Both the position numbers and the translations under genes were made by a program. A DNA stretch of 63,886 nt, the filler included, from Craspedostauros australis (taxonomy: Eukaryota), in assembly GCA_030167865.1 (NCBI GenBank). It is 10 parts of 10 records of this genome, joined end to end, with 100 filler letters (N's around TTAATTAATTAA, not from the genome) between each part and the next. Parts side by side here need not be neighbours in the genome. Positions count along the whole stretch, not along the records: positions 19,912 to 42,404 come from JALAGF010001115.1; 9 more parts are not named here. One strand, 5' to 3'. Below, in pieces: positions 22,570 to 26,506 of this stretch. The notes under the pieces are model-generated. The model saw only the letters and a list, made by a program, of their open reading frames with translations. It had not been told where the DNA came from and ran no database searches. The first letter of the stretch is position 1; every line of letters begins with the position of its first letter.

Positions 22570-23969
22570 TGTGATGGTGATCGATCCTTCTACTCCAAAC
22601 CAACGCTGCACTCCAATGCTATTCCGTTGCGTCGTTGCGTCTGTCTCTCCTGTCGATGCTCGTTGGTGACCGTAACGATCTACTTCATGCTCTGGATTCT
22701 GGGAAACCTCCGGACTCAGAACGATCACCAACACCACCAACGCCACCAACGCCAGACAGTATCCGCGGCACATCCTCACCACCGAATCCTTGATGTTGTT
22801 GGATGGGTTGTGTTGGTGTCATTCGTATCTTTTCAATATCTTCTTGCGTTCGTTAGTCTTGATGTTGAAGGACGAACCTGTCCGTCAACGTGACATTCCG
22901 TGTTGAATTGGTGCAGAATGAGTTTTCGAACACTTTACGAACGACAGAGAACTCCTTCGAACGAAAAGAACAATCATGATTGGAAAACTCGTGATTCGAC
23001 GGTCGACTCGATTGGTTGTGAGAAAGGAACTTCAACCTCGACTGTGGGAAGGAATTTCGCTTTCGTTTGGATGGTGCGACATGCGTAGATTTTTGTACTA
23101 AGTATACTGAGATTCACTCCGCTTCAACAGGAACAGAGATTCCTTGAGCCGGCTTGATTCGATGAACCATGACGTACTTTTTCTTGCAGTTGTTTGGTTT
23201 GCTGATTGGTGTCTGAGTTGTGATTGACTCATGATGTCGATGGGGGTTGAGCTTCGGTGACACGATACGATTCAGTGGCTGTGGGGAATCTTCGTCCATC
23301 AGAGCGCGTTTCGTTTGCGGTGGAGGAGTTCGTTTCTCTTCGTGTCTGTGTTGCGCCGTTTTTTTCTCGGAGAGTCCGGGTTTCAGCTGTTCATCGTGGT
23401 GGATTCATCGCGCTAAATGTTCGATTGATCACGTAAGAGGTCCGTCTCGCGATACGCCGTGCTGTATCGTGTTGGATGCAAACCTGGTTGAAGTCAGCAA
23501 AACGTGAAAAGTGAACCATTTGCTGTGCCGCGAACCGTGCAAGTACAGACAGCAGTACCTGTGCGTAGCAAGTATACGTGAAGCAACTGCACTGCCCACC
23601 ACCCACCCACCAACAAACACAAAATCCCAATCAACCACACAAGATCAACGCCCACATCCACGCAAGCCGCAGCATCAGCATCAGCATAAAACAACCAGAG
23701 CGGTTGCGATCAAGATCGGCATCAACATCAACAAGGACACCCAACGCCCATAAAACCAACAGCATCAACAACATCGGCAACACCAAAGAAGAAAGGAAAG
23801 GAGAGACACGTCGCAAGTGAGATCCAAAGCAATCCAATTCAAAGGAAAGCAAAGGAAAGCAAAGGAAACGAACAAACGGAGAGAAAGATCCGAGAACGGC
23901 AGAACACAAACGCACGAACACAGACAGGAACATCAGAACCCAAATCAAAGCCAAATATCATCCCTCACC

Positions 23970-24995
23970 ATGACGACCATCATGCAACCGCAGATCACGC
24001 CGATTGCGTTCACCTCACAGATCCTCAGCCAAGACACAAGCGCAGTGACTGCACCGGTGGGCATGACTTCGATGGAAGCAAGAAACCGCAGCTGTGACAT
24101 CATGTTGACTCAGCACAACGACGCAACAAGCACCGCCACGACAGCACCAGTAGTCGTGCCAGACAGCGCTGCTTCGTGCACAACTTCGCCTACTGCCACC
24201 ACCATCACCACAGCAGCCACAGCAGCCACAACAGTCACAGCAGCCACAACAGTCACAACCACCACCACTACTGCCACCGCAACAACCACCACAGCTGGAC
24301 CAGCACGAAAACGCACGAAAACTTCAGGATCGAGCGCGGCAACCAGCAAGAAAGCCAAGAAGCCGCAGATGAGATACGACCCCGACGTGCCGATGACCAA
24401 GGAGCAGGCCGCCGTCTGGCGTCGCGAACAGCGCAGGAAGCGCAACCGGGAGAGCGCGGCCGCGTCCCGCCAGAAGCAGCGCGATCGCATCACCGAACTC
24501 GAAGTCGAGATCAACGGTTACCAGACCAAGCACTCCTCCATCATGGCCAGGATTCAAGAATTGGAGCGCATCGCCGCCGCCAAGCAGATCACCATCACAT
24601 CCACCACCGAGACTCCGGCTGCCACAGACACCGACACCACTCCTTCCATCACTGTCATGCAGCCAGAATGCGTCACTGATGACGAAGCATCCCGTGCTGG
24701 TCGACACTCTGACGCCAGCAGCATCTCCGCCGATGCCACCGCATGTCCGCACACGACCGCACCAGCTTCGCCTGGACCGGCGTTCGTGCCTTCCTCGCTT
24801 CCCGTTGCAGTCTCACCCATTCCGTCTAACGTTGACTTTCTTGATTTCTCCCACACGCACATGCCACAGACACAGACACAACAAGAGCAGAAGCTCAGCC
24901 TTCTGGATGAGGTCAACGTTGCCATCCCAAGCACACACCAATTGAACATGGATCAGCCACCACTAAGGATTATCTCACGACAAGCTACGTCATGA
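23970..24995 (+). CDS. bZIP transcription factor, unspliced form (341 aa); HAC1/XBP1/bZIP60-like candidate
   Basis: Basic region and zipper WRREQRRKRNRESAAASRQKQRDRITELEVEINGYQTKHSSIMARIQEL. ACCATG start at 23970 after an A/C-rich leader. Confidence 0.92.
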   Translation: MTTIMQPQITPIAFTSQILSQDTSAVTAPVGMTSMEARNRSCDIMLTQHNDATSTATTAPVVVPDSAASCTTSPTATTITTAATAATTVTAATTVTTTTTTATATTTTAGPARKRTKTSGSSAATSKKAKKPQMRYDPDVPMTKEQAAVWRREQRRKRNRESAAASRQKQRDRITELEVEINGYQTKHSSIMARIQELERIAAAKQITITSTTETPAATDTDTTPSITVMQPECVTDDEASRAGRHSDASSISADATACPHTTAPASPGPAFVPSSLPVAVSPIPSNVDFLDFSHTHMPQTQTQQEQKLSLLDEVNVAIPSTHQLNMDQPPLRIISRQATS

Positions 24996-25539
24996 ATCAA
25001 CCAATCAACCATTCAAACAAACACACATACACACACACCAATCCAAACCAGTCAGCACCCACCATCCAACAAAGCCTGACTGCCGTACCCATCGTCGTCG
25101 ATGATTGGGTGAGATCGAGGTCACAAACCGACGAGACTTGGTCGCCGCCGCGCCCAATGGACATTTGATGCCAAGAGAGTACTCAGCAGCAGCTTCAACG
25201 CTCTGCGGTCTCTCGCTATTGGCTTCTCCCCCCGCAACACTGTCGGTGGCATGCATGCACACGCACGCATGCCACCATCGCACAGTTTGCTCTAATTACG
25301 TTCCGGTTCTAGCGATAGAATGACAGCGACGTCCCGTCCATCCGGCATCAAACCCGGCCGCGCCAAGTCCAGTCGCCTTTGTCCGACCAACCATCGAGCA
25401 CAATCATCGACGACAACAAACCGTCCAGATGACGAAACGAAAGTCGCTGCATCATGCGCTCCATCATTCAAAGATGGAGCAATCGATTGCTCGGCAACTC
25501 GTGTCATCGCTTCAACGACATTTAAGATCACCATTCCAG
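24985..25539 (+). other. Putative non-spliceosomal (IRE1-type) intron, 555 nt, highly structured
   Basis: Both junctions lie in 7-nt hairpin loops (AAG|CTAC and CAG|CAGT). No phase-compatible GT/GC donor near the end of the bZIP ORF. Nested internal inverted repeats; removal joins the frames. Confidence 0.65.
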
Positions 25540-25814
25540 CAGTGAAGATCAACGGTGCTGTTTCCACTAGTTCAATCGGTGTCTCGGACCCACAAGCGCA
25601 ACTACAACTGAGCAGTCAGTTGTCCGTCCTCAACCAGCCAGAGCCCTGCCTGTCGTCGTCATCGTCGCCGGCCGTGCAAACGGATATCAAGTTGGAACCT
25701 CTGGACACATCCCTCTTCCAGCCCAAGGTCGAGCCACTCCCGTCCCTCCTCGCGGATGTGGAATCGGAGGATGACTTCGGTGAGTTCCTGTTGGACGCCG
25801 TTCAATGGTTGTAA
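25540..25814 (+). CDS. Second coding exon of the bZIP gene (acidic/hydrophobic activation-like tail); spliced product 429 aa
   Basis: Same frame as the bZIP ORF. Reads AVKINGAVSTSS...IKLEPLD...KVEPLP...VESEDDFGEFLLDAVQWL*. Confidence 0.7.
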
Positions 25815-26506
25815 GCCATCAACGGCTTGCGTGCATTTGCATGCAATCGCAGAGCTGCACGCGCAGAAGAAGTCGCGTACGGTACATACCATAGTACACA
25901 GCATAGCACGGGGTCTACCGCCGTTATGAGTGCGACAGACCACACAGTTGCGCAGCTGTGCACTTTACTCATCCGATCGGCACGACCAATGGCCGGATGC
26001 AGGGCAGAGAACTCCATTTTGGATCACCACGTCCGCCGTGCCACATGTTGCCCACAAGGGAACACGTACACATCAGGAGACGGCAGCAGCTGCAGCAGTA
26101 CTTCTCTACGAGTACATCTGCTCCACTGCTCAGCCGACAACTCCTTCCATTCATTTCAGTAAAAGCTATTGTAGGAACTCAAACAGTATTAGGGAAAACG
26201 TATCATCATTCATCGCTAAAAGACCTGTTGTGGACTTGTGGAAGTCTATGCTTGAGAGTGTAGAGATCATCAAGTTTGAATTTTGGCGCGAAATTTGTGC
26301 GTTCGCGGAACTCGAGTTTCGGCCATGGATCATGAGGATTTTGTCGCCCCACAACATGCCGACAACACAAACACTCTTGTTCGTCCATTGCGTCCCACTG
26401 ATCTGTTGAAAGCAACACCATACTCGCAATCGTATCATACACCAATAATCGTGGGACAATCACCGCATCCTTGATCTCAACCGCTACGCCCGTCGAGCAC
26501 AGGACG

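Follow-up and report, generated by a model that had tools for sequence, protein, structure and literature searches.

We examined positions 23970-25814 of a 63,886-nucleotide (nt) stretch of DNA from the diatom Craspedostauros australis (assembly GCA_030167865.1; the whole stretch is called the window below). This locus had been predicted to encode a basic leucine zipper (bZIP) factor whose mRNA carries a non-spliceosomal intron of the kind removed by IRE1. The bZIP open reading frame (ORF) extends from the ATG at 23970 to the TGA at 24993-24995 and encodes 341 amino acids (aa), with the C-terminal end ...RIISRQATS. Residues 150-200 of this protein match the Pfam profiles bZIP_1 (E 7.1e-7, score above gathering) and bZIP_2 (E 2.2e-5). 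Downstream and in the same frame lies a stop-to-stop frame at 25296-25814 that ends in DDFGEFLLDAVQWL; it is opened by an ATG at 25320, and its tail has no in-frame Met after 25538. Excision of the 555 nt at 24985-25539 lengthens the protein from 341 to 429 aa, with zero internal stops and the join ...IISRQAVKIN.... The original prediction had described both frames, the in-frame RQA-VKI join, and hairpin-like sequences at 24975-24995 and 25534-25546, and all of these are present. The join has four equivalent registers, whose intron ends are AG..CC, GC..CA, CT..AG, and TA..GC, none of which is GT-AG, GC-AG, or AT-AC. A GT donor at 24989, previously judged unusable, does give a frameshift or a stop with either CAG acceptor when the window sequence is read.

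The features of the locus are as follows (here and below, a slash within a site marks the cut, and positions are numbered - upstream and + downstream of it).
23970..24984, + strand: exon 1, from the start codon through the G of codon 339 (Ala); N-terminal region, bZIP, and acidic linker ...RIISRQ(A); homologues align here
24417..24569, + strand: bZIP basic region and leucine zipper (aa 150-200, Pfam); the basic region is near-invariant in 24 aligned homologues
24821..24961, + strand: predicted exon-exon helix, exon-1 strand; closes the base of the intron (window minimum free energy [MFE] structure and duplex tests)
24975..24995, + strand: candidate 5' cleavage hairpin; stem TCAcGAC with GTCaTGA, loop AAG/CTAC at 24982-24988, proposed cut between 24984 and 24985
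24985..25539, + strand: non-spliceosomal intron of 555 nt, the longest of 45 unique introns; stops in all three frames
25526..25550, + strand: candidate 3' cleavage element, GATC-ACCA-TTC [CAG/CAGT] GAA-GATC, with its TTC-CAGCAGT-GAA core at 25534-25546; loop 25537-25543, proposed cut between 25539 and 25540
25540..25814, + strand: exon 2, the (A)VKI... tail of 90 aa plus stop codon, read only once the intron is removed
25554..25696, + strand: predicted exon-exon helix, exon-2 strand (window MFE structure and duplex tests)
25770..25811, + strand: candidate activation domain, the conserved C-terminal motif DDFGEFLLDAVQWL of acidic and hydrophobic residues
25815..26198, + strand: probable 3' untranslated region (UTR), its end estimated from the length of a 661-nt contig of run X1 (see below)

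Homologous proteins exist in two forms that differ exactly at this join. A protein search with the 341-aa query returned 396 matches at E <= 0.001. Among the best 120 of these 396, 87 stop 0-2 residues past ...[ISTNF][SFT][RL][PQHL][AV] (typically as KMISRPA or KMISRQAxS, then the stop), 22 read on further past the motif, and 2 have a variant of it. The remaining nine have the bZIP, then [SF]R[PQH]A-VKI, and then a tail closing on ...E[FL]G[ED]F[LM][LM]DA[AV].WL and the stop, summarised as ...EFGEFLLDAVQWL; one of them is a Synedropsis transcriptome protein. All species-named matches are diatoms, among the matches listed (Seminavis robusta, Nitzschia inconspicua, Chaetoceros tenuissimus, and Synedropsis). 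The exon-2 tail is also carried by four other proteins (P0123, P0124, P0131, and P0159), and the motif [ED][ED][FL][GD][EDA]F[LM][LM]DA[AV].WL ends every spliced form seen. The last 42 aa of the window protein are 71% identical to the tail of homologue P0032. Querying with the tail alone, in a search limited by a shared-word filter, gave 4 matches to longer proteins. Homology to relatives starts at VKI, and the part of the downstream frame before AVKI has no counterpart.

Both forms also fall together within single clusters at 90% identity. One such cluster holds the Chaetoceros tenuissimus gene model GFH59276.1 (283 aa, ending ...KEKNSLPA) and 360-aa members that read ...NSLPAVKI..., with KEKNSLPAVKITG at the junction, and end in ...EFDEFLMDAAEWL. 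Another comprises Transcript_6740 (275 aa) and Transcript_6741 (368 aa) from MMETSP, whose sequences we take to be transcriptomes, and further clusters pair forms of 281 and 384 aa and of 224 and 295 aa. The three named genome gene models (from Seminavis robusta, Nitzschia inconspicua, and Chaetoceros tenuissimus) end at the unspliced stop; the active isoform is therefore unannotated in these public models.

Metagenome contigs place the intron boundaries precisely. A nucleotide scan identified 80 loci (L001-L080), of which 21 are spliced, reading contiguously through ...ISR[PQH]AVKI..., and 48 hold both sites with a segment between them. The spliced loci are all whole contigs of 1033-1579 nt, and every one of the 24 contigs that exceed 2.1 kb (maximum 43 kb) is unspliced. 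Three pairs of spliced and unspliced loci, each pair from one assembly, are 99.9-100% identical and differ by exact deletions of 344, 457, and 341 nt (L048 and L057, L049 and L051, L069 and L076, respectively). These deletions fall within a shared GCA and thereby confirm the boundaries. Less similar pairs are L023 (spliced) and L030 (unspliced), at 93% identity, and L074 and L078, at ~85%. In relatives, spliced and unspliced RNAs coexist in the three same-assembly pairs, in MMETSP 6740 and 6741, and in the Chaetoceros cluster. We looked for poly(A) tails on the spliced contigs and found none. The SR[PQ]A-VK junction that orthologues had been expected to share is seen as [SF]R[PQH]A-VKI in all nine tail-bearing homologues and in the 21 spliced contigs.

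Intron statistics were compiled for 45 unique introns, the window included. Lengths range from 217 to 555 nt (median 344) and are spread over all three phases, with 15, 16, and 14 introns leaving remainders of 0, 1, and 2 after division by three. For the 30 that are not multiples of three, removal shifts the reading frame so that the tail, out of frame until then, is read, and in 34 of the 45 the unspliced ORF runs 0-2 codons beyond Ala before it stops. Not one intron has GT-AG, GC-AG, or AT-AC ends in any equivalent register, as the description of the window intron as non-spliceosomal had implied, and 11 end in CG, GG, or TG at the G/C cut. Scanning 23700-26300 against Rfam by E-value returned only 7 chance matches, all below threshold, with no intron family and none resembling HAC1 or XBP1. 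The window intron contains a perfect 14-bp inverted repeat (25094-25107 with 25401-25414) and a GCATGC-rich hairpin at 25245-25276, which together add to its strong fold.

The 3' site is the more constrained of the two in sequence. It reads TTC-C-N-G/C-A-G-T-GAA-GATC, with C-3, G-1, C+1, A+2, G+3, and T+4 invariant in 45/45 and position -2 free to vary (A34/C7/T2/G2). Since C-3 and G-1 are fixed amid intron sequence that is otherwise unconserved, the constraint acts on RNA. The 17-nt motif of this site occurs once in the window. All 45 loops fit CNG/CNGN, and Saccharomyces cerevisiae Ire1 is reported to require the loop pattern CNG/(C/A)NGN (PMC8104961). The IRE1alpha consensus, given as CUGCAG within a stem-loop (PMC2952871), occurs literally at the 3' loop of two loci (L056 and L078). 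Of 42 unique 3' sites, 40 keep the layout GAUC-(0-5 nt)-UUC[loop]GAA-GAUC. In the MFE structure of the window, CAUU pairs with AGUG around a 5-nt loop, atop the same GAUC-GAUC helix.

Could the nuclear machinery make this join? The spliceosome, or an unknown nuclear activity, might remove the intron at non-canonical sites, the unspliced form then being ordinary intron retention unrelated to IRE1 or endoplasmic reticulum (ER) stress. The TTCCAG/ of 34 of the 45 3' sites resembles a pyrimidine tract with YAG, and the two isoforms co-occur in assemblies as they do with retained introns. However, none of the 45 introns has GT, GC, or AT-AC type ends in any register, and those that end in CG, GG, or TG belong to lineages in which spliced forms nevertheless occur (L023 and L030, L074 and L078, and the Chaetoceros cluster). 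Moreover, an invariant C-3 and G-1 around a free -2 is the pattern of IRE1 and not that of a splice acceptor. We consider nuclear splicing quite unlikely.

Several other features surround the 3' site. An intronic box, (T)AAGATCA, is conserved ~10-16 nt upstream of the 3' cut (25524-25531 in the window; loci L001-L080) and is a near direct repeat of exon-2 GAAGATCA and exon-1 AAGATGATC. Its GATC is separated from the TTC stem by a spacer of 0-5 nt, which fits a second, GATC-GATC helix of the 3' element, and it may have other roles. Pairing of this box with exon-1 TGATCT was rejected as a general feature, as L008, L027, and L038 keep the box and lack the exon-1 GATCT. In L001, L003, L006, L023, and others, exon-2 CAGTGA-AGA-TCACTG forms a 6-bp hairpin that would hide loop bases +1 to +4; the window (CAGTGAAGATCAACGG) lacks it. 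A second 3'-site look-alike, TTC TAG/CAGT TAAGAT, downstream of the true site in L011 and L012 was excluded as a probable chance or degenerate copy.

At the 5' site it is the hairpin that is conserved. G-1 and C+1 are invariant in 45/45 and stand at positions 3 and 4 of a 7-nt loop. The closing pairs are C-G in 40/41 and A-U in 41/41 unique sites, and the third pair is G-C in 32, U-A in 4, and G-U in 1. Pair 22-34 of the stem is GC in 32 and UA in 4 sites, giving 4 compensatory changes from G-C to U-A. Across the stem alignment, 68.9% of cells are paired versus 28-40% with the partners slid. When sequences were folded individually, the probability of the closing pair exceeded 0.5 in 39 of 41 unique 57-nt sites, versus 5/410 random windows of the same loci and 6/410 windows centred on a random GC; in full intron context it did so in 40 of 45. 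For the window it is 0.97 locally and 0.93 in full context. The outer stems vary by lineage yet stay complementary (GAUGAU with AUCAUU, GAGAA with UUCUC, GAGAUC with GAUCUU). Conservation of the hairpins in orthologues, which had been anticipated, is thus borne out at the 5' site by structure (39 of 41) and at the 3' site by loop sequence (CNG/CNGN in 45 of 45). The stop codon of the unspliced form (24993-24995) sits within the 3' arm of the 5' hairpin. A divergent lineage, L013 (and L010), ends in ...KEIPRPAV and has the 5' loop CAG/CAGT, for which the standard hairpin register has probability 0.00; it may use a shifted structure.

A further element, absent from the original prediction, is a long helix between the exons. 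Spliced contigs show complementarity between the segment 20-45 nt before the junction and that 15-45 nt after it, with lineage-specific sequences (e.g., AAAAATCGAATT with AATTCGATTTTT, GAGCAGGAG with CTCCTGCTC, and AAGAGGAAGA with TCTTCCTCTT). Duplex energies were computed between exon 1 (-79..-19) and exon 2 (+14..+75) for 59 unique exon pairs. The median is -43.4 kcal/mol for cognate and -24.0 kcal/mol for non-cognate combinations; the cognate partner ranks first in 33/59 and among the top five in 52/59, the poorer ranks arising in a densely sampled lineage whose close relatives pair equally well. The window exons rank first (-35.1 cognate versus -18.1 non-cognate). We repeated the test in 30-nt bins with 35 lineages, thinned at 80% identity, for which chance is ~1/35. 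The cognate partner came first in 20/35 for exon-1 bin -49..-20, 13/35 for -79..-50, 8/35 for -109..-80, 6/35 for -139..-110, and 1/35 for -169..-140. Because these counts fall to chance with distance from the splice sites, the helix extends ~110-140 nt on each side.

The window folds strongly here: 24880-25650 reaches -258.1 kcal/mol versus -193.3 +/- 6.3 for 20 shuffles (z -10.3), and 82 pairs link 24821-24961 to 25554-25696 in the MFE structure of 24800-25730. In this folding model one stem, the helix, carries the intron body together with the 5' hairpin and the 3' element. RNAalifold, applied to an ungapped alignment of 20 spliced junctions, recovered only the invariant inner helix of GAUCU with AGAUC and 0 compensatory pairs; because the register of the outer helix differs from lineage to lineage, cognate versus non-cognate energies were used instead. 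Upstream of the site, exon 1 is rich in purines and codes for acidic or polar residues; exon 2 downstream is rich in pyrimidines and codes for Pro, Ser, and Leu. Even non-cognate exon pairs have a sizeable duplex energy (median -24 kcal/mol). It seems that the helix between the exons has moulded the composition of the protein.

Exon pairing that presents two cut sites is typical of some endonuclease substrates. The intron could in principle be excised by another endonuclease and a ligase, such as a tRNA-splicing endonuclease acting on a bulge-helix-bulge, or by an unknown enzyme; the long helix, the failure of the 5' loop to fit the stringent IRE1 consensus, and the weak 3' stem all speak for such an enzyme. 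Yet what surrounds the 5' cut is a hairpin loop formed by exon 1 and the start of the intron, not a 3-nt bulge, and both cuts fit G/C at positions 3 and 4 of candidate 7-nt loops. In addition, a bZIP host with a swapped C-terminus is presented as the signature of every known IRE1 splicing target in the part of the literature drawn on here (PMC4891664). This makes a different enzyme very unlikely.

Evidence from the organism itself comes from run X1, presumed to be RNA, which was the sole run covering part of the stretch (0.18 of sampled words). X1 yields one contig of 661 nt (depth 27.9) that starts exactly at 25538 and covers 25538-26000 and beyond, with an implied end at ~26198. Positions 25538-25539 (AG) are the first bases common to the exon-1 end ...CAAG and the intron end ...CCAG. 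A de Bruijn graph holding both isoforms would break there, so the contig start is consistent with the join.

It is highly improbable that the spliced sequences are artefacts in which reverse transcriptase or an assembler jumped across the stable helix at a microhomology of 3-6 nt (GCA or CCAGCA). Direct repeats and stable helices favour template switching; here a short direct repeat contains the junction, whose two sides are brought together by the long helix. However, independent assemblies and transcriptomes show this junction repeatedly. Centric and pennate diatoms alike conserve the tail at the protein level even though it is off-frame from exon 1 in 30/45 introns, so it must be translated after a precise join. 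We give next to no credence to the idea that 25320-25814 is part of an independently initiated transcript and that the bZIP protein ends at 24995: the ATG at 25320 and the X1 contig that starts at 25538, with no upstream cover, would suit it, but homology begins only at VKI, intron lengths occupy all three phases, the tail lacks an in-frame Met after 25538, and in relatives the tail is joined to the bZIP portion.

Several observations weigh against assigning the cuts to IRE1. At the 5' loop, position -3 is C24/A21 (A in the window) and +3 is T20/A17/G5/C3, so that G is found in only 5/45; the deviation at -3 and +3 that the original prediction had flagged thus holds family-wide. The S. cerevisiae enzyme is reported to need C-3 and G+3, bare G/C being accepted only by relaxed Ire1 enzymes (PMC8104961). 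The window 5' hairpin, while the local MFE structure, has z -0.8, with 37/200 shuffles folding as well. The 3' TTC-GAA hairpin with its 7-nt loop has a probability above 0.5 in 4/42 local folds and 0/45 in full context; its median energy is -1.2 kcal/mol, ~7.5 kcal/mol above the local MFE, and in the window it is not part of the local MFE structure. Covariation cannot be scored in the 3' stem because GAA-GATC is invariant coding sequence. Lastly, the same break at 25538 would result from a contig end of any kind or from a donor exon that finishes in AG preceded by a base other than C, and X1 itself showed no join, no loose end, and nothing upstream of 25538.

The predicted hairpins of the window by themselves are not beyond chance; it is the relatives that take the case beyond it. 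In the relatives, the junction, the intron ends, the loops, and the 5' hairpin support the reading originally proposed. The 5' loop fits only the relaxed G/C motif and does so within a well-supported 7-nt stem-loop, which, by analogy with relaxed enzymes, suggests an IRE1 that needs little beyond G/C in such a loop. Overall, we conclude that 23970-25814 very probably encodes a diatom bZIP factor whose mRNA is switched by IRE1-type cytoplasmic splicing, like HAC1, XBP1, and bZIP60.

Among the branches of the unfolded-protein response, the one driven by IRE1 through bZIP mRNA splicing is the oldest. By analogy with known targets, IRE1 would be the nuclease and ER stress the trigger, an RNA ligase would complete the reaction, and the tail would be the functional gain. 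The primary mRNA would be translated into the 341-aa form, with the stop two codons past the 5' site. At least the last 100 nt of exon 1 would pair with at least the first 100 nt of exon 2, placing both cleavage sites atop one long stem, the 5' site in the 7-nt hairpin loop AAG/CUAC and the 3' site as CAG/CAGU. The RNase of activated IRE1 would cut after the G in both loops and free the 555-nt intron. The halves would be retained by the exon-exon helix and joined by an RNA ligase (RtcB- or Trl1-type). The spliced mRNA would then yield 429 aa, ...ISRQA-VKI... followed by the acidic-hydrophobic tail DDFGEFLLDAVQWL, which is probably transactivating.

More broadly, we lean towards the view that diatoms, and perhaps stramenopiles in general, run an IRE1-bZIP switch with an RNA architecture of its own. 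This would combine an intron of 217-555 nt, a 5' loop reduced to G/C, a canonical CNG/CAGU 3' site whose stem is minimal, and an exon-exon helix of ~100 bp that co-evolves and clamps the exons. If so, unconventional bZIP splicing would occur in the SAR (Stramenopiles, Alveolata, Rhizaria) supergroup besides opisthokonts and plants, which argues for an origin before their divergence, and the system would allow one to test whether this switch is older than the separation of the major eukaryotic groups. As a clamp, the helix would represent a new way to hold exons across long IRE1 introns, possibly also gating translation; the long co-varying helix is itself a testable idea for how such exons are kept together. 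A defined target would also give a direct read-out of ER stress in diatoms, as a size shift of 217-555 nt in reverse transcription PCR, and a handle on secretory capacity in species used in biotechnology.

Two features of the locus lie outside the switch. At 24175-24295, ahead of the basic region, runs of ACN and GCN codons specify TATTITTAATAATTVTAATTVTTTTTTATATTTT, a low-complexity stretch rich in Thr and Ala that is absent in aligned relatives. In the leader 5' of the start codon, 23843-23872 holds three tandem copies of GGAAAGCAAA within a purine-rich tract. A profile search of the PDB with the family alignment gave 0 matches at E <= 0.01.

The supposition that no such system was known from stramenopiles agrees with the open-access papers and preprints, in which we found no description from diatoms or other stramenopiles; a report in a subscription journal is possible. 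In the parts of three sources drawn on here, bZIP mRNA targets of IRE1 are described only in fungi, animals, land plants, and one green alga (PMC12781897, PMC13545648, PMC4891664). The cross-eukaryote study of IRE1 and bZIP among them (PMC4891664) has, in the text available, 0 mentions of diatom, stramenopile, Phaeodactylum, Thalassiosira, Phytophthora, or protist, and the accessible portion of a 2026 microalgal review cites only Chlamydomonas bZIP1 (PMC13545648). Heterokont bZIPs are reported to cluster with ATF6/OASIS, HAC1, and plant proto-B proteins (PMC4736632, in the part drawn on here).

By architecture the closest known system is yeast HAC1, and the loop motif is common with XBP1 and bZIP60. 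The S. cerevisiae HAC1 intron is 252 nt long. Like HAC1, the diatom gene is a bZIP mRNA with a long non-spliceosomal intron (217-555 nt), an unspliced stop just past the 5' site, and a swapped tail. Both cuts would lie in 7-nt loops, and the diatom 3' loop fits CNG/(C/A)NGN. Unlike HAC1, however, the diatom 5' loop keeps only G/C and is not an expected substrate of S. cerevisiae Ire1, the tail has an unrelated sequence, and the intron is closed by a co-varying exon-exon helix of ~110-140 nt per side. We know of no HAC1 counterpart of a helix of such size. A HAC1-like pairing of the 5' UTR with the intron was considered for the window and rejected, the best candidate being an unconvincing 13 nt at 85% complementarity (23626-23638 with 25097-25109).

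The metazoan XBP1 intron is only 26 nt, in contrast to the 217-555 nt of diatoms, and the unspliced protein, XBP1u, has a long alternative C-terminus used for targeting, whereas 34/45 diatom unspliced ORFs end 0-2 codons past the site. What the two have in common is a 3' loop, C[N]GCAG, that includes the CUGCAG consensus (PMC2952871, in the part drawn on here) and a removal that shifts the frame into the tail, as it does in 30/45 diatom introns. Plant bZIP60 and Chlamydomonas bZIP1 are likewise bZIPs of photosynthetic eukaryotes activated by IRE1 splicing. According to the portions of the sources drawn on here, bZIP60 has a 23-nt intron whose splicing removes the membrane anchor of bZIP60u (PMC12781897), CrbZIP1 is spliced by CrIRE1 in Chlamydomonas (PMC13545648), and the sites are twin loops, each with three conserved bases (PMC4891664). 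The diatom gene differs from bZIP60 in that bZIP60 has a short intron and an anchored unspliced form, whereas the diatom unspliced form simply lacks the tail; its lineage, Stramenopiles, is also different. With its relaxed 5' loop and very long exon-exon clamp, the diatom system may be a variant architecture of the known IRE1-bZIP class.

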